Source: a virus (lineage: Duplodnaviria > Caudoviricetes). From it: 64,000 nucleotides of DNA. The translations under genes and the position numbers were made by a program. The notes under the pieces were generated by a model. The model saw only the letters and a program-made list of their open reading frames with translations. It was not told where the DNA came from and searched no databases. Shown here piece by piece: positions 4,383 through 64,000 of the stretch (its first letter is position 1; the number at the start of each line of letters is the position of its first letter). Location: positions 45,315 through 109,314 of the IMG/VR virus record IMGVR_UViG_3300033070_001497. The stretch is one strand, 5' to 3'.

Positions 4383-4390
4383 AATAGATA
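4383..4390 (+). promoter_or_regulatory. Putative late promoter AATAGATA
   Basis: T4 late TATAAATA-like octamer, 7 nt before ATG 4398. Confidence 0.6.
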
Positions 4391-4397
4391 GCCGGAG

Positions 4398-6146
4398 ATG
4401 CCCAACGAATTCTCCAACGAGTACATCCAGTCACAGGGAGCCCAAGGCGGATCGGCCGGCTTCAACGCGATCATCGGCGAGCTGTACACCCAGCCTGATG
4501 GGAATTGGCCAGCGCCTCCAGCGATAACCGATCCACAGAATGGCGAATCGATCCAATACGCTGGCTCGAGGGCCGGCGCTAAGCCGTCGATCTTCAACCG
4601 GTACTCGATCTTCTTCTTCAACAACAGGACATCGAACTCGACCACCCCAGAGGACTACTTCGATAAGCCAGAGAAGTATGGGATCCGGGCACAGAACGAC
4701 ATGGCCACGACGGTGATCAGTCATCCGTCAGCGACGAACATCATCAAGTGGTCCAAGACTGGACAGACGAACGCAGTCGAATATGATTGGCCAGACTTCA
4801 CTTGGTGCAAGCACTACGGCGACGTGCCAAACAACTACATGGTCACTCTTCGTAGGTTCCCGATGCCATGTGCGGATGACCTGTTCGACAACTCGAAGAA
4901 CCCAGCCCCTGATATCGGTAGGATGATCACCTGGGTCGACAACTCGATGAACAGCTTCGAGTCTGTTGGGATGAAGTTCAGCCATGGGATGACATGGAAG
5001 AAGCTGACAGCCGACATCCAAGAGGTCGAGTACCAAGGCGCATACCAGAACGAAGGACTGGGACTCCAGAACGATTACGCTGGAGGCGGATACAAGGGAA
5101 CCATAGCCAGATCAGCTAACACTGTAGGTAAAGCGATAGTAGCCGCATCCGCAGCAACACAGGAAGGGTTCGGGAAGAATAACCTCGCTAACCCGAACAT
5201 GGACACGTACAACCCGTACGGCGAGAACAGGAACGTCACATTCGGACCAGTGGACATCATCCGCGAGATGTACATCCGTGAGAAAGGGCTCGAGTTCACG
5301 CAGGAATTCTCGCTGAAATTCGAGTATGAGCTCAGATCGATCGATGGCATCAATCCGAAGGTCGCGTTCATGGATCTTCTTTCGAACATACTCATCTGCA
5401 CCGCGAACAAGGGCAGCTTCTGGGGCGGAGAGGTGAGGCACTACGGTGGTTACGCCAGGAAGGTCAAACCTTTGGGAGACCCCAGTATGCTCGAGAAGGG
5501 CAATTTCCAGGGATACGTCAAATCGATTCTCCAAAAGCTCATGGGCCGGCTCAGCAGTCTGACAGATGGACAGGGTTTCTCTTTGGCTGGCCTAGGAAAC
5601 GCCGCAAAGACCATTGGTTCGAACATCCTAGGAAACGTGCTGGGTGGATCGCTCGACAACATGGGCCGGCCACAAATCCATGGGCTGAATGCCCTGCTGA
5701 CCGGCGAGGACACTGGCGAGTGGCATGTGACCGTCGGGAACCCTGCCAATCCGATGATCTCTGTTGGCAACCTTATCCTGGAGAGCACGGACATTGCGTT
5801 CGATGGATCATTGGGCATCGACGACTTCCCATCGAGGATGATCGTCGAGTGCAAGCTCAAGCCAGCCAGGCCTAGGGACAGAAACGACATCATGGCGATG
5901 TTCAGCCGCCATGGTCGAATGTACATCACGGATCCGCCGACCGCTTCAAAGTACGCCGGCGTCTTGGAAAAGGGCGGCCTTAACCCACACGCGAGCAACG
6001 ACATCTCTGGAGCTGGAGCCGACAAGGGCAAGTATTTCAACGAGGACAGCCTAAAGCAGATCAGGGAAAGCGGGGTCGCTTCCAGATTCCCGAACCACAT
6101 GAAGGACCCTGGATTGCTGACACAGGCTGCCAGGGGCATCGATTGA
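4398..6146 (+). CDS. Baseplate/tail-tube junction protein (gp48-like, tube fold)
   Basis: GLEFTQEFSLKFEYELRSID and GNLILESTDIAFDG...DFPSRMIVECKLK resemble tube-fold baseplate proteins; lies directly upstream of the gp53-like gene. Confidence 0.45.
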   Translation: MPNEFSNEYIQSQGAQGGSAGFNAIIGELYTQPDGNWPAPPAITDPQNGESIQYAGSRAGAKPSIFNRYSIFFFNNRTSNSTTPEDYFDKPEKYGIRAQNDMATTVISHPSATNIIKWSKTGQTNAVEYDWPDFTWCKHYGDVPNNYMVTLRRFPMPCADDLFDNSKNPAPDIGRMITWVDNSMNSFESVGMKFSHGMTWKKLTADIQEVEYQGAYQNEGLGLQNDYAGGGYKGTIARSANTVGKAIVAASAATQEGFGKNNLANPNMDTYNPYGENRNVTFGPVDIIREMYIREKGLEFTQEFSLKFEYELRSIDGINPKVAFMDLLSNILICTANKGSFWGGEVRHYGGYARKVKPLGDPSMLEKGNFQGYVKSILQKLMGRLSSLTDGQGFSLAGLGNAAKTIGSNILGNVLGGSLDNMGRPQIHGLNALLTGEDTGEWHVTVGNPANPMISVGNLILESTDIAFDGSLGIDDFPSRMIVECKLKPARPRDRNDIMAMFSRHGRMYITDPPTASKYAGVLEKGGLNPHASNDISGAGADKGKYFNEDSLKQIRESGVASRFPNHMKDPGLLTQAARGID

Positions 6147-6147
6147 C

Positions 6148-6155
6148 AATACATA
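6148..6155 (+). promoter_or_regulatory. Putative late promoter AATACATA
   Basis: 4 nt before ATG 6160. Confidence 0.55.
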
Positions 6156-6159
6156 ACGC

Positions 6160-6690
6160 ATGCAGATCGCTCTATTGGACCTTAAGGCCACGATGGATCG
6201 TGATGGTGTGAAGATGATCGACTTCCTGGACAACAACTTCACTGTGAATTACCTGTCCCCAGACTTCCAGGTCATGCGGATCGTCAAGGTGGAGGAACAC
6301 CACCTCTGCAGGATCGACCTGATCGCGTTCGAGGCCTATGGATCAGTGGATCAGGTGGACGCTGTTCTCAAGTTCAACATGATCACTAACCCATTCTCGA
6401 TGGAGATCGGCGACATCCTAGTCATTCCTTCCCTATCATCGGTCAGCAGCTTCTTCAAGCGATCGGCCCAGGCCCAATCACACACGATCCTGGACACGAA
6501 GTCGATATTCATCGACACCAGTAGGGCCAGCAAAAAAGACGCCGCTAGGCTCGAGCAGTTGGCTCGGATCGCTTCCAAGAGGAAGAACGGCGCATCGGAG
6601 ATCAAGCCGACTAACTTGCTCAGGAACGGTGAGGTTCCATTCGCGACAACCGGCGGAGCCCTGAGGCTGGCCCCTAACGCGACCAAGTGA
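6160..6690 (+). CDS. Baseplate wedge protein gp53-like (LysM-like)
   Basis: RIDLIAFEAYGS...AVLKFNMITNPFSMEIGDILVIP is the gp53/LysM pattern. Confidence 0.75.
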   Translation: MQIALLDLKATMDRDGVKMIDFLDNNFTVNYLSPDFQVMRIVKVEEHHLCRIDLIAFEAYGSVDQVDAVLKFNMITNPFSMEIGDILVIPSLSSVSSFFKRSAQAQSHTILDTKSIFIDTSRASKKDAARLEQLARIASKRKNGASEIKPTNLLRNGEVPFATTGGALRLAPNATK

Positions 6691-8222
6691 GCACCGAAAG
6701 GACCATACTTCCTCTGTTGGATCCGACCATCAAGGTCGATCCACTCATGATCGAGGACCAGGAATCCGACGAGGCCAGGGCCTCGCTTGCGGGTGGAGTA
6801 GACCCAGACCTTCTGAACGAGAACTCCGCTAGGGCCGGCGCATGGATGCCCATGGTCGCAGTCAGGTCGATCATGTTCGATAAGACGGAGATCAAATACC
6901 TCAATGTGAGCCTTGGGTCGAAGATCCCAAGGGTGACTCTCACGATCAAGGACTCTGCGCAGAAGTTCAACATCAACTTTCCTCTCGATGGAGATGTGAT
7001 CTCGGTCTACCTGCGCCCTCCGGACAAGGACAATCAGCGGCCGATAAGGATCGACTTCGACATACTCTCGATCAACTCCTCGCCAAGCACACAGAGCTAC
7101 ACGTTCAGCGGCATCATGAAGATCCCTGGATTCTTCGGCGAGGTGTGCCGCTCGTTTCCATCTGCAAGCAGCTTCGACCACCTGATGGATGTCTGTGAAT
7201 CGGTCGGCCTTGGATTCGCATCGAACGAGACGACCATGGACGATGCGATGAAGAGGATCTGTGCGTTCGAGACATACGAGACGTTCGTCTCACAGTCCGT
7301 CCAGAACTGCTTCAAGAACGATGACAGTTTCTTCACTTGGTTCATTGATCCATACTACTACCTCTGTCTGGTCAACGTCAACAAGCAGTTCTCGCTCGAG
7401 GACAAGCTGGATGAGATCAACCTGAGCTATTCGGTGCCATTGGCTGGCATCGAGGGCCAGCAGGGCACCCAAGACACCATCAAAGGGTCGTTGGTCCTAA
7501 CCAACAAGCTCGAGATGAATGGAATGAACACCTTCATCGAGCAGTTCTCGCTCGAGAACAAGAGCGCAAATGTGTGGATCGAGAATGGTTACAAGCGGCA
7601 AGTCCAGTACTACGACATGGAGGCCGACGATCCTACCTACGTCAGGAACTTCATCGATCCATTGACGACACCAGGATCTGAGAACGAACAGATCCTGATG
7701 AAGGGCAGGAGGGACGAGGACACGTACAAGCGATCGATCAAGTACAAATGGATCGGCAACCAGTTCTCTAACACCAACGGCGGCCACGTCCATGACAACT
7801 ACATCTTCGCCAGGGTGCTCAATTTCCAGAACCTGATGGAAGTCGAGAAGATGTCGCTCAAGGTCAATCTGGCTGGCATGAACTTCTACCTTTCGAAGTA
7901 CGCTCGAGTGCCGGTATTGATCTACCAATCTGGCCAAAACTCCAAGAACGCCCAACTCCTGAAAAAGAGGGACGAGGACCTCGGTGAGACACACGATTCT
8001 GACCCAAACAAGACGCAAGCTTTCAACGCTGCATCCTCGGTTGGGCCTGATGGATCACAGGATGGCCTGAACCCAACCGATCAGGTCAAGAACGAGTTCC
8101 TGTCTGGGTACTACGTGATCAGTTCGATCGACTATAAATACACGCCGCCTGGGCCAGTCAAGCAGTCGCTGGTGTTGGTAAGAAGGGAATGGCCGATCCC
8201 AGCTAGGAACAAGGATGTCTAA
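6687..8222 (+). CDS. Baseplate hub protein (gp27/GpD-like)
   Basis: Located between gp53-like and gp5-like genes; C-terminal FLSGYYVISSIDYKY...QSLVLVRR is typical of hub proteins. Confidence 0.6.
   Translation: MSTERTILPLLDPTIKVDPLMIEDQESDEARASLAGGVDPDLLNENSARAGAWMPMVAVRSIMFDKTEIKYLNVSLGSKIPRVTLTIKDSAQKFNINFPLDGDVISVYLRPPDKDNQRPIRIDFDILSINSSPSTQSYTFSGIMKIPGFFGEVCRSFPSASSFDHLMDVCESVGLGFASNETTMDDAMKRICAFETYETFVSQSVQNCFKNDDSFFTWFIDPYYYLCLVNVNKQFSLEDKLDEINLSYSVPLAGIEGQQGTQDTIKGSLVLTNKLEMNGMNTFIEQFSLENKSANVWIENGYKRQVQYYDMEADDPTYVRNFIDPLTTPGSENEQILMKGRRDEDTYKRSIKYKWIGNQFSNTNGGHVHDNYIFARVLNFQNLMEVEKMSLKVNLAGMNFYLSKYARVPVLIYQSGQNSKNAQLLKKRDEDLGETHDSDPNKTQAFNAASSVGPDGSQDGLNPTDQVKNEFLSGYYVISSIDYKYTPPGPVKQSLVLVRREWPIPARNKDV
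8133..8140 (+). promoter_or_regulatory. Canonical T4-type late promoter TATAAATA (inside upstream CDS)
   Basis: Exact TATAAATA about 75 nt upstream of start 8215. Confidence 0.45.
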
Positions 8223-11510: not shown

Positions 11511-11511
11511 C

Positions 11512-11973: not shown

Positions 11974-11981
11974 GATAGATA
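11974..11981 (+). promoter_or_regulatory. Putative late promoter GATAGATA for the bS1 gene
   Basis: Immediately after the upstream stop and 24 nt before ATG 12006. Confidence 0.55.
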
Positions 11982-12005: not shown

Positions 12006-13238
12006 ATGAATCGTCCGGCAATCCGGAAATCGACGGCTCCACAACTAGAGAGCCTCCTGGCCAGCTACAAGGTCAAGCTTGAAACTACCGAGAATCCAAT
12101 GTTGCCACCGGCAATAGACTGGGATGCGTTAAGCGCCCAATCTGGGAAGAGGCTGGCCAACAACGTGAGGGTCAAGCGTCACAGAGGAGATGAGAAGACC
12201 CAGATCTTCTGCCATGAGCCTTACGCCCAGGAGCTGTACGAAGCTTACTTCGGTGAGCTCGTTGGCCTAGTGGAACCGAAGGTCAACGCAGTAGTCAAGG
12301 GAAAGGTCATCTCTTGCAACGCCAAGACCGCATCGATCGACATCGGATGGCGTGAGGAAGCGATGATCGATCTTGGCCGCGAGGACAAGTCGTACCTTCC
12401 TTACATCGAAACAGGGAACGAGTTCGAGGTCATCGTGGAAAAGGTAGATCCGAACGGAAAGAAGCCGGTGATCGTCTCGCTCACGAAGATGGTGAAGCGA
12501 CGCAACGAAGAGGAGCTGATGAATTCCATCGGAAGCCGTGTCGCTTTCCCTGGCAAGGTCGAAAGCATGATCCAGAACGCCGGCTACTACGTCGACATCT
12601 CTGGGATCAGGTGCTTCATGCCAGGATCGTTGGGTGGCATGAACAAGATCGTCAACTTCGAATCCCTCGTCGGCAAGGAGCTCTACGTAGTTCCTATCGT
12701 CTATTCGAAGGAGAAGGAGTGCATCGTTGTCTCACACCGCAAATACCTGGAATCGTTGATTCCGGGTGAAGTCGAGAAACTCATCGTGGGCCAACGCTAC
12801 GACGGGTTCGTGACTGGCACCAGCGTGCATGGCATCTTCGTCGAGTTCAATGGCTGCCTCACTGGCCTGATCTCAAAGTCAGACATGTCAGAAGAGGTCA
12901 CGGAGCTCTTCAGCAATGGCAGGATCAAACCAGGTGACACCATCAATTTCTTCCTGAAGGAGATATTGGAAGACAATCGATTGGTTCTCTCGATCAACCC
13001 AGTTGAACCGTCTCCTTGGGAGACGATCGAGGACCGGCTGAAGCTCAACACGAAAGTGAGCGGAAAGGTCAAGAAGATCACCAAGTTCGGTGTGTTCATC
13101 GAGCTCGAGCCTAAGATCGTTGGCCTTTTGCACCGGTCTTACCTCGATGAGGCGGATGTGTTCGAGGTCGGCCAGACCGCTGACGCGGTCGTGGTCAAGA
13201 TCGATGTTCCAGGCAAGAAAGTATACCTGGCAAGCTGA
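12006..13238 (+). CDS. rpsA: Ribosomal protein bS1 homologue (4 S1/OB domains)
   Basis: D1 VVKGKVISCNAKTASIDIGWREEAMI; D2 GYYVDISGIRCFMPGSL...LVGKEL...IVVSHR; D3 GQRYDGFVTGTSVHGIFVEFNGCLTGLI; D4 SPWETIEDRLKLNTKVSGKVKKITKFGVFIELEPKIVGLLH. Confidence 0.85.
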   Translation: MNRPAIRKSTAPQLESLLASYKVKLETTENPMLPPAIDWDALSAQSGKRLANNVRVKRHRGDEKTQIFCHEPYAQELYEAYFGELVGLVEPKVNAVVKGKVISCNAKTASIDIGWREEAMIDLGREDKSYLPYIETGNEFEVIVEKVDPNGKKPVIVSLTKMVKRRNEEELMNSIGSRVAFPGKVESMIQNAGYYVDISGIRCFMPGSLGGMNKIVNFESLVGKELYVVPIVYSKEKECIVVSHRKYLESLIPGEVEKLIVGQRYDGFVTGTSVHGIFVEFNGCLTGLISKSDMSEEVTELFSNGRIKPGDTINFFLKEILEDNRLVLSINPVEPSPWETIEDRLKLNTKVSGKVKKITKFGVFIELEPKIVGLLHRSYLDEADVFEVGQTADAVVVKIDVPGKKVYLAS

Positions 13239-13336: not shown

Positions 13337-13338
13337 TC

Positions 13339-13346
13339 AATAGATA
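13339..13346 (+). promoter_or_regulatory. Putative late promoter AATAGATA
   Basis: 4 nt before GTG 13351. Confidence 0.6.
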
Positions 13347-14601: not shown

Positions 14602-15356
14602 CACTCACGCCGACAACCCAAGAATTCATCGAGAGGGTCAAGCAGGAGCTGACTGTCGCTTGTGCGGTGCCGTTCGATCTCAAGGCCAAGGAGATCACTA
14701 GGCTGATCGAAGATGCGTATGGGTGGTTCACTTACTCATACGAGGATTCGGTTGAGGATCGGCTCTACGTCATACCAGTCTCGTCTTTCTCGGTCCCTCT
14801 GTTCAAGGCTAAGCGAGTCCTGCCGCTGCCCACCTGTGTGGTGGCTGTGAATGGGGTAAAGAAGCTTCGGGAGGATTTCCTGCCATCCTTCTCGTTCGAT
14901 GGCACCACGGACATCACGGCCGAGAAAGTGATCTTCAAGGATTCTGCCAACCTTGGCTATGGATCGGAATCCCTGATGTACTACGCGCTCAACCTCTATT
15001 GGATCGATCTGGCATCCCACATCCTCAACCACACGGTCTCCTGGACGTTCAACAAGAACACCGGGCTGCTCTTCTTCGGTGGAGAGACGCCTAACCGGGA
15101 CATCGTGGTCCAGTGCCAAACCAAGATCCCGCTGGATGATCTGATGAAGGACCATCTTTTCTACCGCTATGTGGTGGCCAAGGCCAAGATCCAGCTCTCC
15201 AGGATGATAGGAACGTTCGATTTCTCACTCGTCGGCAACGTGAAGATCAACTACGAGCTCGTAAGGGAAGAGGGCAAGGAGGAGCTACAGGAGGTCAAGG
15301 ATCGGATCAAGGGCGACAACGCCATGGACTTCTTCTTTACCAGTGGCGGCGGTTGA
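14598..15356 (+). CDS. Neck/head-completion protein gp13-like
   Basis: EITRLIEDAYGWF...; FYRYVVAKAKIQLSRMIGTFDFSLVGNVKINYELVREEGKEEL matches the gp13 C-terminal pattern. Confidence 0.75.
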   Translation: MTLTPTTQEFIERVKQELTVACAVPFDLKAKEITRLIEDAYGWFTYSYEDSVEDRLYVIPVSSFSVPLFKAKRVLPLPTCVVAVNGVKKLREDFLPSFSFDGTTDITAEKVIFKDSANLGYGSESLMYYALNLYWIDLASHILNHTVSWTFNKNTGLLFFGGETPNRDIVVQCQTKIPLDDLMKDHLFYRYVVAKAKIQLSRMIGTFDFSLVGNVKINYELVREEGKEELQEVKDRIKGDNAMDFFFTSGGG

Positions 15357-15362
15357 TTGTCC

Positions 15363-15370
15363 AATAGATA
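15363..15370 (+). promoter_or_regulatory. Putative late promoter AATAGATA
   Basis: 4 nt before GTG 15375. Confidence 0.6.
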
Positions 15371-15374
15371 GGAC

Positions 15375-15743
15375 GTGCCAATCGATTTCTATTTCAGGAT
15401 GCCAGAGGATCCTAACTACTCGAGCTACGAGACGGAGGTGGCCGAGGAGCTGGACCAATTCTTGCAGCAGGTCGAGATGATCCTGACCACCCGGAAGGGC
15501 CAGGTCCTTGGAGAGCCGAAGTTCGGGGCCAACCTCGAGGATTTCCTGTGGAACTACAGGGCCTCGTCTTACCAGATCGAGAACGAGGTCAAGTCCCAGA
15601 TCGAAACTTGGTGCAGCGAGCTCGGACAGAAGTTCAGCTACAAAGTCGAGGCAAGCTTCATCCCAGGTGACATAAGCGACTCGATCCTCGTCGATATCAC
15701 CATCGACGGAACAAAAGTCCTAGGGATAGGAGTGAGACCATGA
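15375..15743 (+). CDS. Baseplate wedge gp25-like
   Basis: MILTTRKGQVLGEPKFGANLEDFLW is the GPW/gp25 signature. Confidence 0.85.
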   Translation: MPIDFYFRMPEDPNYSSYETEVAEELDQFLQQVEMILTTRKGQVLGEPKFGANLEDFLWNYRASSYQIENEVKSQIETWCSELGQKFSYKVEASFIPGDISDSILVDITIDGTKVLGIGVRP

Positions 15744-17506
15744 ACATCCTGAACCCGCACAGAATAAAATACTCCGAGGTAGAGTCGGACGTGCATGGCT
15801 ACCTTGGCAAGACTTACGCCCAGAAGCGATCGGTTTTCTCCGTCGCTTCCGTGTACGGCCAGATCCTGAAGGTGCTCAAGTCATTCTGGCAGCTGCTCAT
15901 GCTCATGTTAGAAGACTCGATCGTCGAGAACAACATCTACACCGCTTCAAAGCAGAGGGCGATCTATGGCCTTTCCAGGCTAGCTGGCCACAACCCCACC
16001 AGGGCTCTGTCGGCCCAAGGCACGATAAGGATGAAGATCAAGGCGAGCGCCCTGGCTGATCTGAACGCCTCTTACATCGATATCGTCGATCGGACAACTC
16101 TCAAGTGCACAGACAACGGCCTCCCTTATTTCATCCAGCTCGGAGAATCCCTGGACTCGATCAGGATCAACATCTCTGACAGGGAATTTCACCGAGTGAC
16201 GATCGTCCAGGGCAAGGTGGAATCACAATCCCTGATCGGCACCGGACAGGCACTGCAATCGTTCAACATCAAGGCCAAGAAACCGATAGAGAATGAGCTA
16301 GTCTTCGTCAAGGTGAACGGCGTGCCCTATGAGGTGGTCGATTCTCTCTACGACATGAGGAAGGGAGAGAACCTTTGTATAGTCAAGACCAGCGTCATCG
16401 ATGGAATTGACCTGACATTTGGAAACGAGGACTATGGAGTCATCCCTCCATTGGGCTCGCTGATCACCGTCGAATACGTGACATCGGATGGTTTCGAAGG
16501 CAACATCTACAGCAAATCCGATAGGATCGAATTCAAGTGGGATGGCGAAGCGATCACCGACACCGGCGAACAGGTTGACCTGAACGAGGTCCTCGACGTT
16601 TTCATCGATAAGCCGATCGTCCTAGGCGCTGACAACGAGCCAATCGAACTCACAAAGCTCATTGCACCGAAGACATCGAGGTCTTACGTTCTGGCTAACC
16701 CAGACAACTATGTGAATCTCCTCTCCAGGTTCAACTACTCGTATGTCGATGCTTACACGACGTTCGACGACGATTACCTGGACGATGACAACGTCGTCTA
16801 CCTTTTCCTGATCCCTGACCTGTCAAGACGGCTGGAAAAGAACACTGACTACTACACCACGCCATTGACTTCGTTCTATCTCGACACAGACGAGAAGGAT
16901 GCGCTGGTCTCGTGGATCCACCAATCCGGTAGGATGATCGCTTCGACTGAGCTCCAGATCGTAGACCCGATCGTCAAGAAGTATGCACTCAACATCTTCC
17001 TACGGATCTTCGATTGGGCAGATGCTTCGACGGCGAGGTCAATGGCGATCTCCAAGGTGACTGACTACATGCTCACGGTCAACCGCCGAGACAAGATCCC
17101 GAAGTCAGACCTCATCGCCATCCTCGAGGGAATCAAGGGAATCGATTCGGTGCACGTCAATTTTGTCTCTGAGGAGAACGAAAAGGCGATCATCGATGGG
17201 TGGTACACGAAGCGAAGCTACCAGACTGATCGGATCCGTGGGCTCAAGACGTTGGTGGAGACCAGAGTCAATCTGACAGATGGAGATGACCCAAGGCTTG
17301 GACTGGATGATTTTGGCGACATCAAGATCGGACTAAACGAGATGCCGCTCTTCCGAGGAGGATGGTACGATCGATTCGGCGCCTACTACGACGATGGACT
17401 CACCGACCACAACAGCTGTTCCGTCAATGTGGTCATCAAGGAAGTGATACAGGACAGCGTGGCTAAGAGGATCGCGGCGAAGAACAAGGAAGCGCTCAAG
17501 AGATGA
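15740..17506 (+). CDS. Baseplate wedge gp6-like (baseplate J)
   Basis: IYTASKQRAIYGLSRLAGHNPTRALSAQG, LTFGNEDYGVIPPLGSLITVEYVTSDGFEGN, GADNEPIE; follows gp25. Confidence 0.85.
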   Translation: MNILNPHRIKYSEVESDVHGYLGKTYAQKRSVFSVASVYGQILKVLKSFWQLLMLMLEDSIVENNIYTASKQRAIYGLSRLAGHNPTRALSAQGTIRMKIKASALADLNASYIDIVDRTTLKCTDNGLPYFIQLGESLDSIRINISDREFHRVTIVQGKVESQSLIGTGQALQSFNIKAKKPIENELVFVKVNGVPYEVVDSLYDMRKGENLCIVKTSVIDGIDLTFGNEDYGVIPPLGSLITVEYVTSDGFEGNIYSKSDRIEFKWDGEAITDTGEQVDLNEVLDVFIDKPIVLGADNEPIELTKLIAPKTSRSYVLANPDNYVNLLSRFNYSYVDAYTTFDDDYLDDDNVVYLFLIPDLSRRLEKNTDYYTTPLTSFYLDTDEKDALVSWIHQSGRMIASTELQIVDPIVKKYALNIFLRIFDWADASTARSMAISKVTDYMLTVNRRDKIPKSDLIAILEGIKGIDSVHVNFVSEENEKAIIDGWYTKRSYQTDRIRGLKTLVETRVNLTDGDDPRLGLDDFGDIKIGLNEMPLFRGGWYDRFGAYYDDGLTDHNSCSVNVVIKEVIQDSVAKRIAAKNKEALKR

Positions 17507-17742
17507 CAACTGATTCATTCTACCGCAAAATGCTTGCCCGAGAGAGGGTCAATATGGGATTCGACTATTCGAACGGAATGCTGTCCAAATTCGTGTCTCC
17601 TAGGTTGTATGGGAACCCGATGCTCGCTGAATTTCTCAACCGGATAGACAAGGTGATCGTCGACATGGCCGAATCAATCAAGCGCGTCCAATTCTACTTC
17701 GCGTTCACAATCGATAAGAACGATCTAAGCATCAACCAGTGA
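17503..17742 (+). CDS. Small baseplate-associated hypothetical protein
   Basis: ATGA/GTGA coupled between gp6 and the next gene. Confidence 0.65.
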   Translation: MTTDSFYRKMLARERVNMGFDYSNGMLSKFVSPRLYGNPMLAEFLNRIDKVIVDMAESIKRVQFYFAFTIDKNDLSINQ

Positions 17743-20700: not shown

Positions 20701-21890
20701 ATCTCTACCACCTGTGGTGGGATGGTATCGGTACCAAGATCACACAGTTCAGCATCTCCGAGTGCTCGACCGGTCCGACCGGCTACATGTTCATGACGCT
20801 AGAGAATTGTCCGTTCGACATCACTGATCCGAACATGACGATCAGTTACGTCCAAGGCCCGACAGGCTACACCGGTCCATTGGGCATCACCGGCGCTACT
20901 GGAGCGACTGGCGACGTCATCTACTCGGCCTACGATTCGAGCGTCTATCGCTACGATGGCTCGGTCTGGAAGCGGACATACGCAACCATGGAGGGCTTCC
21001 CGTTGAGGTCCAACTACACGAACAGGAGATCGAGGTTCCAGAACTTGGTCAGCCAACTGAACTTCGACCTCTATGACGATGCCAGGGACCTTCCGATGCT
21101 CAGGTCATTCATCTACTACTTCGATGAAAAGTACGACACCGATTACTCGCTGAAGCCGTACGTGAGAGCAGTGTCCAAGGACTTCGACAAGCACAACAGG
21201 CACCGGATAAGGTTCCAGGGCATGACCGGGGATTCGAAGTCTTACGAGACCACGTACTTCGGCTACATGGGAGACATCCCATCCCACTTCGAGATCTACA
21301 CCGTCTCATCATCGACTGGGCCCAGCAGCTCCATCACCGTGGAAGGGATGACGGCGCCATACCTGATTGGCGCAACCAACCTGATCTACTTGGCCGATGA
21401 GCTCAATGGGCCGACAGCCCAATCTTGGCCAGGGATCCGTGAGTTCTCGTACAACCTCGTCCTGGGTTGGTCTGGCGGCACCGGTTCGACGTCTTACTAT
21501 GAGACGAAGGTCCAGGCCATCTCGAAGGCCTTCACTTCGCCTGACAAGTTCTGGGTGGAGTTCGATAACGTCATAGGCACCATCTATGGGCGATCCCTCA
21601 TCAAGAATCCGACCTTCGATAACCTGCGGATCCTCAAGTACAGCAAGAGGCTGCCAGTCCTCAGCCTTCTGAACTTCACCTATGACAATTGCCAGGTGCA
21701 CGGCAAGAAGAAGCCAGTCTGGAAGCTGTCAAAGGAGTTGGAAGGTTCAACTGTGGATACATACGACCGGAATCGGTACTTCTCGTTCCTGTTCACAGAA
21801 AAGGGCTCTTACACACTGAGCCTCAAACTCGAAGACACGAACGGAAACGTCGTGGAAACAACCAAACGGGAATTGATCATCGTCGAATAA
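17739..21890 (+). CDS. Large baseplate wedge/structural protein (gp7-like) with C-terminal PKD/Ig-like domain
   Basis: YIGSYRALINIIKFFGY (gp7/gpI-type segment); KGSYTLSLKLEDTNGN Ig/PKD-type end. Confidence 0.55.
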   Translation: MSYKYYNFYNKRGEYLNLDYDADSDCWTGRIQHGVISEGLVEDAQIYILEQVYNQTSGLVESAFPVGSPVVCDGGIVLQGAGSSGIDGTYCPDGTSETFPMWTQVGGTTFQDSIYYIYVGGGIYLWVITSGGSYSQSPFYAKYAAYNVDGTLPLPSDFFVTSGGLPEVPSFGSVELMGAGPFLNVYFSPTGASEHFQYGFSANPTADNWLVKERQKNYGLEINSFTIVGVTGNDPGMKIVDEVRSEALQINIGFQPSTEANYSNWLTIEDGLGHVIARIEVYGEGENEDERLKDILQNFGHDILSEDMPVFDKTDINEPEPDWIFLNRKRKELITEFEKIFPYIGSYRALINIIKFFGYQDVHLKEYWRNVDPRSVNYGKFKHTDIIQIFDKTANFRDSLSVPNKIYKKTNLFGLFYDITKETGEYDENGYPVVEEVFSFTPEEVLIKIFALKNKLKKYFLPTNARIIDIVGEAVYYMRLDTTARTSFCRVDAVQLSLHPTYEILPKPCGYIQDLRPLYHYGCPVGPDLLLDGTTDLFSWRIGIGNTAYVGGILDGIQTYALSVNIPFGPTSSIVSATFQRDPDTGQTAYSGAEIANGLIAAWNDAAETDERLAPFTLYQEGGSSGIIRILQTEPGSTGQIFAYWYSNTTGVIPSGKFSIPGPTGGTATTIDISPGGTFGPSGAPMSYYNDCFLAYFDNINLEVAELNDDEDIPVGYPITLVNTTFDISWDEAEVTFNDIDQTDFGQTGPTGQTYYSQFNQSFQVTGWTSIYPNPGLPSGATYLSIAATAGMTGFPSNFPTQNVYSWINLGRYNFYEMQWKVTFDGDIDWSYDSGRKTVSELERHSLILPYAGTYTVELRMWDLYNTVAIKIDPAAICVKMQECDFIGWYQMLEKEYTFDTPRYEVQSDYSKNDPRYRKPKQLTWDEYVSTWELPFHPNEEIGMAEISYNSLDGIEFYQNITDEDRHPLADRNPYYFHKIGKVARFKDLYHLWWDGIGTKITQFSISECSTGPTGYMFMTLENCPFDITDPNMTISYVQGPTGYTGPLGITGATGATGDVIYSAYDSSVYRYDGSVWKRTYATMEGFPLRSNYTNRRSRFQNLVSQLNFDLYDDARDLPMLRSFIYYFDEKYDTDYSLKPYVRAVSKDFDKHNRHRIRFQGMTGDSKSYETTYFGYMGDIPSHFEIYTVSSSTGPSSSITVEGMTAPYLIGATNLIYLADELNGPTAQSWPGIREFSYNLVLGWSGGTGSTSYYETKVQAISKAFTSPDKFWVEFDNVIGTIYGRSLIKNPTFDNLRILKYSKRLPVLSLLNFTYDNCQVHGKKKPVWKLSKELEGSTVDTYDRNRYFSFLFTEKGSYTLSLKLEDTNGNVVETTKRELIIVE

Positions 21891-28123: not shown

Positions 28124-28131
28124 AATACATA
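28124..28131 (+). promoter_or_regulatory. Putative late promoter AATACATA
   Basis: 4 nt before ATG 28136. Confidence 0.55.
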
Positions 28132-33285: not shown

Positions 33286-33293
33286 GATAGATA
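33286..33293 (+). promoter_or_regulatory. Putative late promoter GATAGATA
   Basis: Intergenic, 60 nt before GTG 33354. Confidence 0.55.
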
Positions 33294-39812: not shown

Positions 39813-39820
39813 TATAGATA
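39813..39820 (+). promoter_or_regulatory. Putative late promoter TATAGATA
   Basis: Intergenic, 18 nt before ATG 39839. Confidence 0.55.
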
Positions 39821-40619: not shown

Positions 40620-40739
40620 GATAAATAGGAAAAACACAGAACGCGAATGACAGCATAAAGACGAACCCCAAACCGCACATAAGACAACGCAAACCAAACG
40701 CCGAAAGGCAAAGAACAGCAAACCAAAAACACAAACCAA
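40620..40739 (+). promoter_or_regulatory. Late promoter GATAAATA plus A/C-rich, T-depleted leader of the SSB gene
   Basis: GATAAATA at 40620-40627; only 3 T in 40628-40739 and none in 40681-40739. Confidence 0.6.
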
Positions 40740-44962: not shown

Positions 44963-44970
44963 GATAGATA
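44963..44970 (+). promoter_or_regulatory. Putative late promoter GATAGATA
   Basis: 4 nt before ATG 44975. Confidence 0.6.
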
Positions 44971-45196: not shown

Positions 45197-46275
45197 AAAA
45201 CTTACGCGACACATATCTGGAGCTCGGGGCCTCAGGGTTCAGGAGCTTGATGAGAGAGCACATAAGCGTCATCGAGCGCTTCGACGCCCCGAAGATCCGG
45301 GTCTGGAAGGACGGGGAATCCCTAGCCTTTGGCAAACGAGACAGGGACCTGAACCTCATCGACCGGGTCCTGGATCCCAGCATCTCGGGGCCAATGGCCG
45401 TCCTGGAATCGATGGATCGATCCGTCTTCCAGGATGGGTTCGTCTACGAGTTCAGCTGCTTCGATTCGGTGAAGCCGGTATCCTTCGAGTATGAGAGGAT
45501 GCCCAAGGATGGGTTGGTCTACATGTGCAAGCGCAAGGGCCAATCGATAATCGAGAGGCCCGACTTTGACATGCAGTTCGAGAGCGCCGTCCTTTGGCAG
45601 GGCAACCTGAGCGATAGGATGGTCGACCAGTTCGTCGGGATCGCCAAGGCTTCGCTCTCCGCTGGCATCGGTCCAAGCCGCGTGCTGGAGATCGTTGGCG
45701 CCACCCCGACGTTGAACGAGTCTGCGACCTATGGGCTGGTCATCAGGGCCGGCAAATGGAACCCCGTCTATTTCTCCATCAACGACTCGGTGAACGAATC
45801 GTTCCGTGAGAATGCGATCCAACGCAGGGACCCTATCGATTTCCATGGGATCATCCTCTGTGACTTCATCGATTTCTGTGAGGTTGGAGCAAAGCTCGAT
45901 GAGGCTATAGGGCACGTCGGAGACGTGCACGAGAGGTTCCTGACCTCAGTCTCTAACCTTTACCTGCAGTACATGGCCGACCGGCCTGGGATCTTCGATG
46001 GGGTCGAGATCTCCGATCGCGATTTTGGCGTGGACGAGAAACTGATCATGCCCGAGGTCTCGGAGACATTCAAGGGCCACGTGAACAACAAGAAGGTGTT
46101 CCAGATGATCCTCCAGTCCCTCTACTCCCCGAAGAAGAAACCGACTGGGACCCTGACCGAATCCATCCTTCAGACTATAAATAGGATCCGGAACCGGATC
46201 ACCGAAGCGATAAGGATCACGTCAGGCGATGAACCCATCACTTTCTCCGAGTACCTCCTAACAAAAAAGATCTGA
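45193..46275 (+). CDS. Degenerate RNA-ligase-fold protein
   Basis: VIERFDA (motif I KxDG-like), VLWQGNL, TYGLVIR (motif IV EGxVIR-like). Confidence 0.4.
   Translation: MKNLRDTYLELGASGFRSLMREHISVIERFDAPKIRVWKDGESLAFGKRDRDLNLIDRVLDPSISGPMAVLESMDRSVFQDGFVYEFSCFDSVKPVSFEYERMPKDGLVYMCKRKGQSIIERPDFDMQFESAVLWQGNLSDRMVDQFVGIAKASLSAGIGPSRVLEIVGATPTLNESATYGLVIRAGKWNPVYFSINDSVNESFRENAIQRRDPIDFHGIILCDFIDFCEVGAKLDEAIGHVGDVHERFLTSVSNLYLQYMADRPGIFDGVEISDRDFGVDEKLIMPEVSETFKGHVNNKKVFQMILQSLYSPKKKPTGTLTESILQTINRIRNRITEAIRITSGDEPITFSEYLLTKKI
46176..46183 (+). promoter_or_regulatory. Canonical late promoter TATAAATA (inside CDS)
   Basis: Exact match about 94 nt upstream of 46277. Confidence 0.45.
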
Positions 46276-49096: not shown

Positions 49097-49339
49097 ATGA
49101 ACCAACCAAACCCAACCGACGTCCCAAAGATCAGGGTCAACCTGGCCAAGGATAGCACCGCCATCCTCTGTGAGTGTGGATCGGAGTTCTTCCAGGAAGT
49201 CATGCGCATCAGGCGCATCTCTCGCCTCCTGACCGGCGAGCCAGAGGATCGGATCATGCCTGTTCCGGCCGTGCTCTGCGTGTCTTGTGGCAAAGAATGT
49301 GATCCAACCGCTCCCACAAAACCGAGCATCGTCACATGA
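49097..49339 (+). CDS. Small zinc-ribbon protein
   Basis: CECG...CVSCG; ATGA-coupled to the polymerase N-half. Confidence 0.7.
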   Translation: MNQPNPTDVPKIRVNLAKDSTAILCECGSEFFQEVMRIRRISRLLTGEPEDRIMPVPAVLCVSCGKECDPTAPTKPSIVT

Positions 49340-50718
49340 TCCTCGACATCGAGACCTTCGGCGACCGTCTCAGGATCTCCTACTACGACCAACAGGGCAA
49401 AGTCAAGCTCAAGGACTACAGGGTCCCTGACTGTTCGGATTGGTCGATCTGTTCGCCGTCGGATCCAAAGCGTTCGATGGAGTACAAGAATTGGGATGGG
49501 TCTTCCGTGAAGAAGAGGCCAGCCAAGTTCCTGAACAAGTTCTCTGTCCTGGAGTTCATCCAGAACCTTCCGCCAGACGACAAGGCAGAGATCACGGCCC
49601 TCAACTTCCCGGCCATCCAATCGGTCGACATCGAGACCGAGATCATGGACACCTTCCCTGATCCAAACGTCGCCCGAGAGCGCATCACCGCGATCGCTAT
49701 AGCGACCGAGGATTGCAAGGTCACCGTCTTCGGTTGGAAGGAGATCACCGAGGAGAGGAAGAAGTGGATCTACGACCAGCAGCGTGAGTACCTTAAGGAC
49801 TTCGGCGAGTGGGAGTTTAAGTACGTCTGCTTCGAGAACGAGCACTCGATGCTCTTGGCTTTCATCCAGAAGGTCCTGCCAAGGTGCTCGATGGTCACAG
49901 GCTGGAACTTCAGCCAGTTCGACTGGAAGTACATAACCAACCGGTGCAAAAGGATCGGCATCAATGTCGCCGATGCTTCGCCTTCCAGGCGTGTCATGGG
50001 AAAGGAGGAGATCCCTCTTCACATCGGGATCTGTGACTACATGGAGATCTACAAGAAGTGGGATCGCTATGTCAAGGTCAAGGAAAGCAACTCCCTCGAT
50101 TTCGTTTCAAACGCAGTACTCGGCGTCACGAAGATCAAATACCCAGGCACCCTCAAGCAGCTCTACGAGGAGGACTACGACAAATTCATCCTGTACAACG
50201 CGATCGACTCCGCGCTGGTGTGCCTGATCCACAAGAAACTCAAGATCACGAACGCCGCTTTCTCGGTCTCCGTCTTCTGTGACCTTCCTCTCTACAAGTG
50301 CAACTCCCCAGTAGCTCTGACGGAGGCCTTGCTATGGAAGGGCTACTACAAGCGGAAGATGGTCATCGCGGATGAGAAGCTCGAGACTCCGAAGCAACAG
50401 TATGAAGGAGCCTATGTGAAGGAGCCGGTGCCTGGCTTCTACCGAGCTGTCACCTGCTTCGACTATGCCTCGCTGTACCCATCGATCATGAGGCAGTTCA
50501 ACATCTCGCCCGAATCCTTCATCAAGAAGGAGACCGACCCAGCCAAAATCGAGGAAGCGAAGAAGGATCGGTCGAAGATCGTTGCAGCGAGCGGCTCGAT
50601 CTATGGGACCGAGCTCTCAGTGATGAAGGAGATCCTCACGAACCTATACAGCGACAGGCGCAAGCACAAGGACTTGCACCTTGAGCTCGAACGATACCTA
50701 GCAAAGAGAAAAAAGTGA
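49336..50718 (+). CDS. Family B DNA polymerase, N-terminal subunit (3'-5' exonuclease plus motif A)
   Basis: ExoI DIET, ExoII GWNFSQFDWKY, ExoIII YNAID, YEGAYV, motif A FDYASLYPSIM; ends in the first fingers helix. Confidence 0.92.
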   Translation: MILDIETFGDRLRISYYDQQGKVKLKDYRVPDCSDWSICSPSDPKRSMEYKNWDGSSVKKRPAKFLNKFSVLEFIQNLPPDDKAEITALNFPAIQSVDIETEIMDTFPDPNVARERITAIAIATEDCKVTVFGWKEITEERKKWIYDQQREYLKDFGEWEFKYVCFENEHSMLLAFIQKVLPRCSMVTGWNFSQFDWKYITNRCKRIGINVADASPSRRVMGKEEIPLHIGICDYMEIYKKWDRYVKVKESNSLDFVSNAVLGVTKIKYPGTLKQLYEEDYDKFILYNAIDSALVCLIHKKLKITNAAFSVSVFCDLPLYKCNSPVALTEALLWKGYYKRKMVIADEKLETPKQQYEGAYVKEPVPGFYRAVTCFDYASLYPSIMRQFNISPESFIKKETDPAKIEEAKKDRSKIVAASGSIYGTELSVMKEILTNLYSDRRKHKDLHLELERYLAKRKK

Positions 50719-53279: not shown

Positions 53280-53287
53280 AATAGATA
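53280..53287 (+). promoter_or_regulatory. Putative late promoter AATAGATA
   Basis: After the RNR stop, 23 nt before ATG 53311, with an A-rich leader. Confidence 0.55.
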
Positions 53288-54221: not shown

Positions 54222-54255
54222 TGGGCTGTGCCTTCTGGGGTCATAGAATGGTCCC

Positions 54256-55020
54256 ATGAAGTCCTTAACCATCACCAAGCTCAATCGCTCGGAGCTCAAG
54301 TCCTTCATCAGGACGCTGTTGAACATAAGCGAGAAAGTCTACTTCTCCATCTCACAGGACGGAGTTCGAACAGGGATGTACACACAGTCCCATGACACTG
54401 CGATGATCAAGCGCATCGAACTCAAGAAGATGATGGAGATCGATGGCCAGTTCGACGAGGTCAGGATCGGCTTGTTCAAGGATGTCCCAGAACGATTGCT
54501 CAAGTACCTTGAGAACTTCGACTCGGACACGCTCAAGTGTACAGTCAAGTTCTTCCAGATGCGCGGAGACAACGTCAACTATGCCCAGAGCATCGAGCTC
54601 AAGGACAAAGGGCTCAAGATGAACATCTTCTGCCAGGACCCGGCGTTGGGGTATGTGTGCTTGACACCAGAACAGGAGAAGATCGCGTTTGACGATGCGA
54701 ATTCTTTCTTCGCATTCGATCTTGATAGGGAGACCCTCATCAAGATCAACTCATTGCTCGGATTCATTAAGGAGCCAAAGGCGTTGATCAAATTTGAGGT
54801 GGAGGACGATGGATTGCACATCTCGACTGACATCTTCGACTTATTGGTGGATCCGTCTGTGACGAACAAGACAAGCGGAGTCTCACGCGTGTTCAGGGAG
54901 ACTTTCGACAGGCTTCCTATCGAGAGCTACAAGTGCAAGATCTTCAAGCGCAAGATCATACTCGTCTCGACCGAATCCGAGACTCGAATCGCAATCAACC
55001 TGACAGAGAAAGATGCTTGA
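54256..55020 (+). CDS. Putative DNA sliding clamp (gp45/PCNA fold)
   Basis: 254 aa, two-domain helix/strand pattern, overlaps the polymerase C-half gene; no diagnostic motif. Confidence 0.5.
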   Translation: MKSLTITKLNRSELKSFIRTLLNISEKVYFSISQDGVRTGMYTQSHDTAMIKRIELKKMMEIDGQFDEVRIGLFKDVPERLLKYLENFDSDTLKCTVKFFQMRGDNVNYAQSIELKDKGLKMNIFCQDPALGYVCLTPEQEKIAFDDANSFFAFDLDRETLIKINSLLGFIKEPKALIKFEVEDDGLHISTDIFDLLVDPSVTNKTSGVSRVFRETFDRLPIESYKCKIFKRKIILVSTESETRIAINLTEKDA

Positions 55021-56191
55021 CATCCAAGAGCTGATCAAACGAGACGTCAATGATCTGACGGACGATGAAGTCGAGTTCCTCAGGACAGAGTCCATGAAGA
55101 ACTACATGTTCGAGCAGTGCATCAAGCTGATCATTAACTCGATCTACGGCGCTTTCGCGAACGAGTTCTTCCACTTCTACAACGTCGCCATCGCTGAGTC
55201 AGTCACGCTCCAAGGCCAGGATGCGATCAAGCACACCGAACGGATGACGAATGTGTACTTCATGGAGTACTTCCATAAGGACACCCAACTACACAAGGAG
55301 CTTGGCGTACCAGAAGGAACGATAGTGCCGAAGATCGTCAAGGAGCCGTTCATCTACGCCGACACCGATTCCGGCTACATCGTCTTCGACGAGGCCATGA
55401 GAGCTGTCAACTGGAAGGGCTCGGTGAAGGACTTCATCCTCAAGATGAACTCCGTAAGGCTCAAGGAGTTCTTCAACACCGTGCTGAAGAAGTACGCCAA
55501 GGATGCTGGAGTCGAGAATTACCTTGACTTCGAGCTGGAGACCATCGCCGAGAACGGCATCTGGACAGCCAAGAAGAAGTACATCCAGAACATCATCTGG
55601 AAGGATGGCAAGGACTATGAGAGCCTGTCGTTCATCAAGGCCACTGGCCTGGAGATCATCCAATCGTCAACCCCGGTCTTCTGTAGGCAACGGCTGATAA
55701 AGATCATGCAGTTGATCTTCTCGAAGAACGACGTGAACAATGAGAACTACGCCGAGGTCATCAGGTTGATCAAGGACATCAAGAAGGAGTTCGAGCTATC
55801 GAACCTCGAACAGATCTCGATGGGCAGATCGATCTCAGACTACAGCAAGTACGTCGCCGATGACACCAGGGAGTTCTCGCTCAGGTCAGCATGTCCGATC
55901 CACGTCAGGGCTGGAGCTTACCACAACTTCCTGATCAACCAGAACCCAAAGCTGAAGGGCAAATACCAGCTCATCACCTCGAAGGACAAGATCAAGTGGT
56001 ACCACGCGAAGGACGAGTTCTGCAACGTCTTTGCTTACAAGGCCGGCTCACACCCAACGGAGGTGGCGCCGAAGATCGACATAGAACGGCAGTTCAAGGC
56101 GACGATCATTGATCCACTCAACCGGATCATCGTGCCTGCAGGATACCAACCACTCAACCAAATGTTGGCCTACACCATAGGCCTTTTCTGA
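55013..56191 (+). CDS. Family B DNA polymerase, C-terminal subunit (motifs B and C, thumb)
   Basis: KLIINSIYGAFAN, YADTDS, AKKKYI, GLEIIQSSTP, CPIHVRAG. Confidence 0.92.
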   Translation: MLDIQELIKRDVNDLTDDEVEFLRTESMKNYMFEQCIKLIINSIYGAFANEFFHFYNVAIAESVTLQGQDAIKHTERMTNVYFMEYFHKDTQLHKELGVPEGTIVPKIVKEPFIYADTDSGYIVFDEAMRAVNWKGSVKDFILKMNSVRLKEFFNTVLKKYAKDAGVENYLDFELETIAENGIWTAKKKYIQNIIWKDGKDYESLSFIKATGLEIIQSSTPVFCRQRLIKIMQLIFSKNDVNNENYAEVIRLIKDIKKEFELSNLEQISMGRSISDYSKYVADDTREFSLRSACPIHVRAGAYHNFLINQNPKLKGKYQLITSKDKIKWYHAKDEFCNVFAYKAGSHPTEVAPKIDIERQFKATIIDPLNRIIVPAGYQPLNQMLAYTIGLF

Positions 56192-59456: not shown

Positions 59457-59463
59457 AAGGGCC

Positions 59464-62244: not shown

Positions 62245-63896
62245 ACATCAAGTGGATCGAGTGGAGGAACTTCAACTCCTACGGAAACGCCACACAGCGC
62301 ATCGACTTTGGTGCCAATGGCCTGTACAACCTGATCGGCAAGAATGGGTCAGGGAAGACCACCATCGCTGAGGTGATCGAGTTCGCTGCCTTCGGCAAGG
62401 TCAGCAAGAAGAACAAATCCGACGTCGTCAACCGGATCAACAAGAGCATGTGGACTCGGATCTGCATGGATTCGAGGGGCAAGCGGATCGAGATCTCCAG
62501 GGGCGCAGCTCCGAACGTGTTCGATGTCGAGATCGATGGCACAAGGATCGACACAGCTGGCAACTCGAACGTCCAGTCTTACCTTGAGGACGAGCTCTAT
62601 GAGATCCCATACGCCGTCTTCAAGAACCTCCTGGTGCTCTCGATCGACGATTTCAAGTCGTTCATCACGATGAACACTTCCGACAAGAGGAACATCGTCG
62701 ACAAGCTCTTCGGGTTCTCGATCTTGAACGAGATGCTCAACTCCCTGAAGTCGGAACGCAAGGACATCAAGGAGTCGATCAGGACAACCACTGCCGAGCT
62801 TTCGGCCATCGAGGAGACAATCGAATCCATCTCTAGCCGCATCGAAAGGGCCAAGAGCCAAAAGGCGGAGGATCGGACCAAGCTGCTCGACGAGATCAAT
62901 TCGAAGATGGCCCAAGCCCAAACTGAGCTGAAGACTGTCAGCGATTCCCTGAGCAAGGCCGAGCACTTCATCAACACCCAGTCCAAGTCGATCAGGACGA
63001 TGGATGTCAAGCGGGCCAGCATCCTTGCCGAGCAGAAGGTGACCAAGGAGAAGCTCAACCTGCTTTCCAAGGACAGGTGCCCATACTGCTCGTCACAGAT
63101 GGATTCGCCTGACCATGCTGCGATGAAGGAGACGTGCGCTAACCGAGCTTCGCAGCTGCAATCTGACCTCGAATCCATCGCGAACGATTATCGGAAGGCC
63201 AGCGATGCCGTGGCCAAGCTCAAGGGCACCCATTCGGCGCTGTTCTCTAAGCGCAACTCGCACGAGTCGTCCTTGGCCAGGATGAAAATGGAGATCAAGC
63301 AACTCTCGAACCCAGCCGAAGACGTCGCATCGCTCGAAGCTGTGCACATCGAGAGCTCATCCAAGAAGACCGAGCGCAAGGACAAGATCGAGACTCTGGC
63401 CTCGGAAGACTCCTTCCTCCAGACAGTCGAAGGCGTGCTCGGTGAGGAAGGAATCAAGGGCCAGGTCATGAAGACCGTTGTGCCGGCCCTCAACCAGACG
63501 GTGGCCGCCATGTGCACGAGGCTCCACGTCCCTTACTCGATCCACTTCGACGAGAAGTTCGAGTGCCATGTCCAATCGATGGGCGAGTCCATCTCCCCAA
63601 GGTCCATGAGCTCTGGCGAGCGCGTAAAAGCCGATCTCGCGGTCATCGTCGCCCTGATCAAGGTGATGAAGATGAGGTTCCCGAACCTCAACCTGATGTT
63701 CATCGACGAGATCTACCGCTCAGTGGACAGCGAGGGCATCTTCGAGATCACAAAGATCCTGAACGAGATGAGCAAGGACCATGGCCTCAACGTCTGGGTC
63801 ATGCACCACGCGCCATTGCCCACTGAGTTCTTCGACAAGATCGTCTCTGTCGTCAAGGACGGTGGCTTCTCACGCGTGCACATAGAATCGACATGA
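62241..63896 (+). CDS. Rad50/SbcC-like ATPase (gp46)
   Basis: NFNSYGN, GKNGSGKT, CPYC zinc hook, MSSGE signature, FIDE Walker B, MHH H-loop. Confidence 0.92.
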   Translation: MNIKWIEWRNFNSYGNATQRIDFGANGLYNLIGKNGSGKTTIAEVIEFAAFGKVSKKNKSDVVNRINKSMWTRICMDSRGKRIEISRGAAPNVFDVEIDGTRIDTAGNSNVQSYLEDELYEIPYAVFKNLLVLSIDDFKSFITMNTSDKRNIVDKLFGFSILNEMLNSLKSERKDIKESIRTTTAELSAIEETIESISSRIERAKSQKAEDRTKLLDEINSKMAQAQTELKTVSDSLSKAEHFINTQSKSIRTMDVKRASILAEQKVTKEKLNLLSKDRCPYCSSQMDSPDHAAMKETCANRASQLQSDLESIANDYRKASDAVAKLKGTHSALFSKRNSHESSLARMKMEIKQLSNPAEDVASLEAVHIESSSKKTERKDKIETLASEDSFLQTVEGVLGEEGIKGQVMKTVVPALNQTVAAMCTRLHVPYSIHFDEKFECHVQSMGESISPRSMSSGERVKADLAVIVALIKVMKMRFPNLNLMFIDEIYRSVDSEGIFEITKILNEMSKDHGLNVWVMHHAPLPTEFFDKIVSVVKDGGFSRVHIEST

Positions 63897-63932
63897 CGGA
63901 ATTGGAATCTGCTATCGGCTACATTCTAGGCC

Positions 63933-63940
63933 AATAGATA
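63933..63940 (+). promoter_or_regulatory. Putative late promoter AATAGATA
   Basis: 4 nt before GTG 63945. Confidence 0.6.
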
Positions 63941-63944
63941 GGGA

Positions 63945-64000
63945 GTGAGCCGGTATGATCTGAATTTCAATTACGACGGAGTCTTCCTTAGGAGCGTCAT
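63945..64000 (+). CDS. Start of a late gene (possibly gp15-like tail terminator), truncated
   Basis: MSRYDLNFNYDGVFLRSV... open to the window end. Confidence 0.35.
   Translation, partial: MSRYDLNFNYDGVFLRSV

Follow-up and report, generated by a model that had tools for sequence, protein, structure and literature searches.

The last 64 kb of a viral contig, IMG/VR record IMGVR_UViG_3300033070_001497 (Caudoviricetes), contain repeated copies of an AT-rich octamer, DATAVATA, many of them only four nucleotides (nt) ahead of a start codon. What is this box, and where would a messenger RNA (mRNA) begin, if it were transcribed from so close a position? The evidence reported below indicates that the box is very probably a promoter, akin to the late promoters of phage T4; on balance, the sequence also suggests that mRNAs from the close-spaced copies are functionally leaderless. 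The stretch analyzed, indicated as the window, is 64,000 nt long and corresponds to the end of a contig of 109,314 base pairs (bp), classed as linear and estimated to be 38% complete. Coordinates without prefix are window positions, while those marked "contig" refer to the whole contig.

The octamer and its distance from start codons

An earlier note on this DNA had listed 14 octamer copies, with their spacings from the following start codons: all are present as described, and are reported in Table 1 along with the other elements discussed. The 15 copies of DATAVATA in the window are all on the + strand; in 100 dinucleotide shuffles of the window the mean was 3.72 copies, both strands included, and 15 was never reached. 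In the whole contig, NATANATA occurs 25 times on the + strand and 5 times on the - strand. Of these 30 copies, 14 sit 4–7 nt ahead of a start codon: 8 at a distance (d) of 4 nt, 2 at 5, 3 at 6 and 1 at 7. Three - strand genes belong to this close-spaced set, and seven of its sites are located outside the window; the d = 4 group includes the site preceding 63945 and one - strand gene. All but one of the 14 codons begin an open reading frame (ORF) of at least 70 amino acids (aa), the remaining ORF, at 63945, being truncated by the contig end. Against the genome-wide background, the binomial probability is 4e-8 for d = 4 (background 0.0115 per position) and 1e-9 for d = 4–8 (background 0.053). 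The contention that the fixed spacing argues against chance is therefore borne out, and the motif is enriched both in position and in strand.

The same element was found by motif discovery upstream of genes, run without any prior motif: among the 7-mers of the 35-nt regions preceding predicted genes, ATAGATA shows the highest enrichment, with 9 occurrences observed and 0.32 expected (p = 5e-11). Within 4376–40739, a region corresponding to the baseplate, tail-fibre and neck module, the box is present in each of the nine intergenic gaps that measure at least 10 nt. The spacing between ATAG and all potential start codons, plotted as a histogram, gave a pattern too noisy to be informative. Besides the close-spaced copies (4–7 nt), boxes are found in the contig at 18–24, 60 and 112 nt from start codons, as well as beside or ahead of transfer RNA (tRNA) genes; the use of one box at such different distances, and near RNA genes, is consistent with a promoter rather than with a ribosome-binding signal.

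The start codons themselves were checked against homologous proteins. Homologues align from residue 1 at 6160 (ATG), 15375 (GTG) and 28136 (ATG); for the gp25-like protein starting at 15375, the N-terminus aligns with 59 relatives. At GTG 13351 an in-frame TAG is found one codon upstream, while the next start is 29 codons downstream, within the region shared with homologues. The proposed starts are thus supported by homologue N-termini at four sites, two ATG and two GTG. GTG 63945 is the sole candidate start at its site, because ATG 63956 is out of frame and meets a stop after two codons. GTG is used at 4 of the 8 4-nt sites, as compared to about 8 of 78 elsewhere (p = 0.012), an excess which is expected if any initiating purine suffices. 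For one of the copies with a leader, at 53280, the site is present as described, and the start of the gene is most likely ATG 53311, a correction to the earlier assignment.

These data leave hardly any room for an explanation based on chance and mis-called starts, in which AT-rich octamers would gather in intergenic DNA and the first start after a stop would be picked mechanically. ORF lists do always open a frame at the earliest start codon following a stop, an in-frame stop codon is usually made by the octamer and the following base, and three octamer copies lie within coding sequences. Two of the latter are the copies of canonical TATAAATA, previously listed at 8133 and 46176: both are present, but intragenic and compatible with chance. 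Yet the spacing probabilities, the strand distribution in the window, the homologues validating four start codons and the orthologous boxes carried by relatives all contradict this explanation, which is effectively refuted by the background spacing statistics, the homologue N-termini and the shuffles.

Less can be drawn from the absence of a ribosome-binding site. The earlier argument, that the 4-nt sites leave no room for one, has no discriminating weight: a Shine-Dalgarno motif is found at 5 of 92 genes, against a background of 13%, and such sites are missing at essentially all genes of the phage. Their lack at the 4-nt sites is therefore no evidence for leaderless mRNAs. Upstream regions of the contig are A/C-rich, with AACCAAA and CAAACAC enriched and Shine-Dalgarno motifs depleted.

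Table 1. Octamer boxes and other promoter-like elements. Positions refer to the window, unless marked "contig"; distances are measured from the element to the start codon.
Element	Position	Strand	Distance and start codon	Remarks
AATAGATA box	4383..4390	+	7 nt to ATG 4398	582-aa gene; A at position 6 after box
AATACATA box	6148..6155	+	4 nt to ATG 6160	176-aa baseplate-like gene; start backed by N-termini of homologues in L001 and L002
GATAGATA box, with leader	11974..11981	+	24 nt to ATG 12006	S1-domain protein
AATAGATA box	13339..13346	+	4 nt to GTG 13351	416-aa gene
AATAGATA box	15363..15370	+	4 nt to GTG 15375	gp25-like baseplate wedge; box flanked by inverted repeat GTCC/GGAC
AATACATA box	28124..28131	+	4 nt to ATG 28136	1711-aa protein; L045 homologue matches from residue 1
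GATAGATA box, with leader	33286..33293	+	60 nt to GTG 33354	966 aa; within 82-nt gap
TATAGATA box	39813..39820	+	18 nt to ATG 39839	RuvC-like resolvase
GATAAATA box	40620..40627	+	112 nt to ATG 40740	gp32-like single-stranded DNA-binding protein; long A/C-rich leader after box
GATAGATA box	44963..44970	+	4 nt to ATG 44975	73-aa ORF, replication module
AATAGATA box	53280..53287	+	23 nt to ATG 53311	gap downstream of ribonucleotide reductase gene
AATAGATA box	63933..63940	+	4 nt to GTG 63945	ORF truncated by contig end
TATAAATA in coding sequence	8133..8140	+		probably chance copy; not conserved in L065
Octamer in coding sequence	21756..21763	+		probably chance
TATAAATA in coding sequence	46176..46183	+		probably chance
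GC-ATAGGAT element	2249..2255	+	4 nt to ATG 2260	second promoter-like class
ATAGAAT element	54243..54249	+	6 nt to ATG 54256	second promoter-like class
Boxes enclosed by inverted repeats	contig 19832, 42377, 49697 (window 4383), 60677 (window 15363); 2097 on - strand

A T4-type box at orthologous positions in relatives

Relatives of the baseplate protein were found in 59 IMG/VR records, with identities of 35–60%; several of them are phages of 340–430 kb. GenBank matches of the same protein are from Lak Prevotella phages, LR7565xx huge phages and phages of Flavobacterium, Tenacibaculum and Chryseobacterium. The cultured and host-assigned members of this clade mostly infect Bacteroidota, and the host of the contig phage probably is one of them. 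A megablast search of a 5-kb stretch against cultured phages produced no match. The guanine-cytosine (GC) content of the contig is ~53%, versus 27–43% in every relative fetched: its phage is thus a GC-rich outlier of the clade.

In most of the 59 relatives, the orthologous gp25-like gene is preceded by GATATATA, AATAAATA or an exact TATAAATA, the canonical T4 late box. In several of them a box also precedes the orthologue of the gene starting at 13351 and the syntenic S1 gene, the latter with GATATATA or AATAAATA ~30 nt upstream. The strand preference is again strong: 64 non-redundant coding-strand sites were found in relatives for GATATATA, against 7 on the opposite strand. The boxes of the contig phage, AATAGATA, AATACATA and GATAGATA, match TATAAATA at 6–7 of 8 positions, and no conserved sequence is found upstream of the box.

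Proteins related to gp55, the sigma factor of T4 late transcription, were searched for in five related records: a clear 119-aa match is present in three of them, one being complete (phrog_234, E 1e-15 to 1e-17), and a weak one in a fourth (E 0.002); each of these four proteins can be aligned with T4 gp55. The definition of the octamer as a variant late promoter is well supported, insofar as T4-type boxes stand at orthologous positions, gp55-like sigmas are encoded by some relatives and structural-module operons are headed by the box. The term "late" deserves more caution. The box is present in every one of the nine structural-module gaps, but its use is not confined to late genes: copies also occur in the replication and tRNA modules, so that late expression is presumptive.

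A scan of viral contigs with a gp55 alignment found 80 loci, none above 43% GC; the rest of the contig phage's genome is not among them. A metagenome scan yielded a single relative, AT-rich and 2.4 kb long, covering none of the 4-nt sites. On the contig itself a similarity of 25–30 aa to gp55, within a 559-aa protein encoded on the - strand, was discarded (hhalign probability 1.1%).

Almost all genes of the contig are on the + strand. PHROG matches identify baseplate wedge proteins at 6160, 15375 and 15740, an S1-domain protein and, immediately upstream of the window, a tail fibre. The S1-domain gene (12006–13238) is syntenic in many relatives, at 31–52% identity, with the late box ~30 nt upstream; the protein encoded here is N-terminally longer by 17–28 codons, unless its start is an ATG near 12099. 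A replication module spans 40–64 kb of the window, and includes a gp32-like single-stranded DNA-binding protein, primase, helicases, UvsX, DnaB, a split family-B polymerase and ribonucleotide reductase. The polymerase seems to be divided into a 460-aa N-terminal gene (49336–50718) and a 392-aa C-terminal gene (55013–56191); the large subunit of ribonucleotide reductase and small ORFs lie between the two halves, which are 4.3 kb apart.

The predicted transcription start and its alternatives

According to the mechanism proposed, (A/G)ATA(G/C)ATA would be the contig phage's version of a T4-type late promoter box, devoid of a -35 element, and would be read by the host RNA polymerase together with a phage sigma of the gp55 family, probably encoded outside the sequenced fragment. 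In the AT-rich relatives, where GATATATA, AATAAATA or TATAAATA precedes the ATG by 16–22 nt, the signature N4-R-A following the box would mark a transcription start at its 5th or 6th base. In the 53%-GC phage the leader would have been lost at 14 genes, the distance between box and ATG having shrunk to 4 nt at the modal sites; transcripts would begin on the start codon, or 1–2 nt earlier, and would be leaderless when translated, with a GUG start in four of them. We infer that translation from a 5'-terminal AUG or GUG would be workable, because the host, probably a member of Bacteroidota, does without Shine-Dalgarno pairing.

The signature is well preserved in relatives. In the 64 sites defined by GATATATA, a purine is found at position 5 after the box in 59, and an A at position 6 in 59. 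The distance from box to ATG peaks at 16–22 nt, and is below 10 nt in only one of 45 GATATATA boxes with a downstream start; relatives are therefore predicted to have short leaders, of roughly 11–17 nt. In many of them the gp25 leader folds as a hairpin (GGGAA...TTCCC), ending at the ATG (L001–L059, e.g. L055:9593-9625). In the contig phage, the purine of the start codon occupies position 5 in all eight d = 4 sites, and A is found at position 6 in all six sites with d = 5–7. The short spacers are 83% GC, while the leaders of the other copies are rich in A and C, as are 5' regions elsewhere in the genome: this suggests that the short spacers lie outside the mRNA.

A further indication comes from promoters of the host type. 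The -7 box of Bacteroidota sigmaA promoters, TAnnTTTG, has been mapped at -12 to -5 (PMC9723704). Three such boxes are found on the contig 4, 5 and 5 nt ahead of an ATG: as their mapped position is known, they serve as an internal calibration for the spacing. The close-spacing layout is not limited to the octamer, and these sigmaA boxes, too, are predicted from the sequence to give rise to leaderless mRNAs. They are located at contig 22830, 23651 and 32876 (L067:2830-2837, 3651-3658 and 12876-12883), ahead of genes of 267, 302 and 628 aa, respectively; TGT often precedes such boxes.

The position of the transcription start is also the point on which the first alternative turns. The box may be a promoter whose +1 falls on the 6th base (the T4 position) or beyond it: its transcripts would serve the downstream genes of the operon, while the first gene would be translated from read-through polycistronic mRNA, the tight spacing merely reflecting compaction in a genome where a Shine-Dalgarno leader is unneeded. 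The T4 late box lies at -13 to -6, so that +1 is the 6th base after it (PMC2988020, PMC1524935); position 6 is A in relatives and T at the 4-nt sites of the contig phage; genes of the structural module are tightly packed, most of them overlapping by 1–8 nt, and no gene relies on a Shine-Dalgarno site. We nevertheless regard this alternative as rather unlikely. Compaction does not demand a distance of exactly 4 nt, because an overlap of the box with the upstream gene, frequent among T4 late promoters, would do as well; an identical spacing recurs at eight sites, always with a purine at position 5; a layout of 4–5 nt is common to the host-type sigmaA boxes; and the GTG excess at the 4-nt sites fits selection on the initiating purine. 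As the 4-nt spacing is one base short of strict T4 geometry, either transcription begins at the 5th base here, or transcripts from the 4-nt sites lack a start codon, as this alternative would have it.

A second alternative, which appears improbable, places the function of the octamer in RNA. A loop-displayed AAUAGAUA ahead of the start could be an operator or enhancer of translation, on which the S1 paralogue of the phage or some other RNA-binding protein might act, or an endonuclease site, at which mRNAs would be trimmed to the start codon. Five of the 14 close-spaced boxes are enclosed, as loops, by inverted repeats of at least 4 bp; the gene for the phage S1-domain protein stands behind a copy of the box, and hosts of this type rely on A-rich, unstructured start regions. 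On the other hand, nine of the 14 boxes have no such repeat, the octamer also occurs 18–112 nt from other starts and near tRNA genes, and in relatives it stands 16–22 nt from the ATG at orthologous positions, where it matches the T4 promoter consensus.

Several observations weigh against leaderless transcription from a T4-type promoter, the reading preferred here. The original proposal for the 4-nt sites agrees with the fixed spacing and the validated starts, but with the box placed as in T4 +1 would fall on the U, the middle base of the start codon, so that the proposal needs a shift of one base. In T4, the segment that follows a late box is AT-rich (PMC2988020); here it is GC-rich. The inverted repeats mentioned above, GC-rich and 4–6 bp long, exceed expectation (5 of 14 boxes versus 6.8%, p = 0.0017, for a statistic chosen post hoc, after the data had been seen) and occur at none of the sites with a leader; they might point to a function in RNA or to the binding of a regulator. 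Box copies are also present in the replication and tRNA modules. The sigma factor, which the earlier note had proposed to locate, is clear in relatives only: on the 38%-complete contig no gp55 was found by Sigma70_r2, phrog_234, phrog_12791 or tblastn with the gp55-like proteins of relatives. No match to the gp45 clamp (phrog_223) was obtained in the contig or in five relatives, a search in which the controls were silent too, making it uninformative. Finally, leaderless mRNAs are rare in the two Bacteroidota in which they have been mapped, 3.7% and 5.5% (PMC9723704, PMC7366714).

Elements of other types were also observed next to start codons. A second promoter-like class, (G)CATAG(G/A)A(T/A), occurs 3–6 nt before the starts of seven genes: two are listed in Table 1, the others are at contig 11979, 12424, 31525, 35936 and 40806, the last one directly after a hairpin resembling an intrinsic terminator. 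TAG(G/A)AT alone was rejected as a promoter class, being too common and without strand bias; only the GCATAG subset was kept. In addition, a sigmaA box followed by the octamer, in the arrangement 'ttgtTAC(G/A)TTTG ... GATACATAgaa', is found twice (L066:2130-2152 and L066:14625-14656): one pair is upstream of the suppressor-tRNA region, while the other heads the tRNA array (contig 14836-20879).

A wider, and tentative, reading is that this lineage has stripped 5' leaders from much of its transcription programme, beyond late genes. Three promoter classes, namely the host-type sigmaA boxes, the GCATAG(G/A)AT class and the T4-type late octamer, would be set for mRNAs starting at the start codon, GUG included. 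Such a condition would contrast with both the host phylum, where leaderless mRNAs are rare, and the AT-rich relatives with their short leaders. The conserved late S1 paralogue of the phage may help ribosomes to handle a leaderless mRNA population.

Comparison with known systems

If the proposed mechanism is true, gp55-type late promoters extend into a clade of huge phages infecting Bacteroidota, relatives of the Lak phages, and the fifth position of the box is freely variable (A, T, G or C). Leaderless late mRNAs, some of them GUG-initiated, would arise from a T4-type promoter fused to start codons; this would offer a natural system for testing leaderless translation on ribosomes independent of Shine-Dalgarno pairing. 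The box would also have a practical use, as it flags true gene starts in such phages, including the GTG starts often missed by gene callers. A literature search found no paper joining T4-type late promoters to leaderless mRNAs.

The closest likeness is to the late promoters of T4, where TATAAATA is recognized with the gp55 sigma, gp33 and the gp45 clamp (PMC2988020, PMC1524935). In both systems an 8-bp TATA-like box functions, or would function, without a -35 element; 7 of 8 box positions agree, given that either A or T is known to be accepted at the first one; the box stands directly ahead of structural genes, with a strong strand bias, and gp55-family proteins are present in the clade. There are also differences. 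The fifth base of the box, G or C in the contig phage, is T in relatives and A in T4; the DNA following the box is rich in GC instead of AT; the box is 4 nt from the start codon, whereas in T4 it fronts a Shine-Dalgarno leader; gp55 and gp45 were not found on the fragment, the gp55-like proteins of relatives are only 119 aa long, and the box is used beyond the structural module.

For the proposed leaderless transcripts, the parallel is found in Thermus phages YS40 (phiYS40) and Lalka27a: most of their transcripts are leaderless, beginning with the A or G of the initiator codon (bioRxiv 10.64898/2026.04.20.719267). Their middle and late promoters are, likewise, a phage-specific class without a -35 element, and GUG starts are included. 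The promoter sequence, in contrast, is unrelated (TAGGGT versus ATAGATA), and the host belongs to another phylum, in which leaderless mRNAs are common; 5' ends were mapped in the Thermus phages, while they are predicted in the contig phage.

The sigmaA promoters of Bacteroidota (PMC9723704, PMC7366714) differ from the octamer in sequence, and in the mapped hosts only 3.7–5.5% of mRNAs are leaderless, typical leaders being about 23 nt long. They resemble it in being a single 8-bp box, three of which stand, on this contig, 4–5 nt before an ATG, at the same distance as the octamer.

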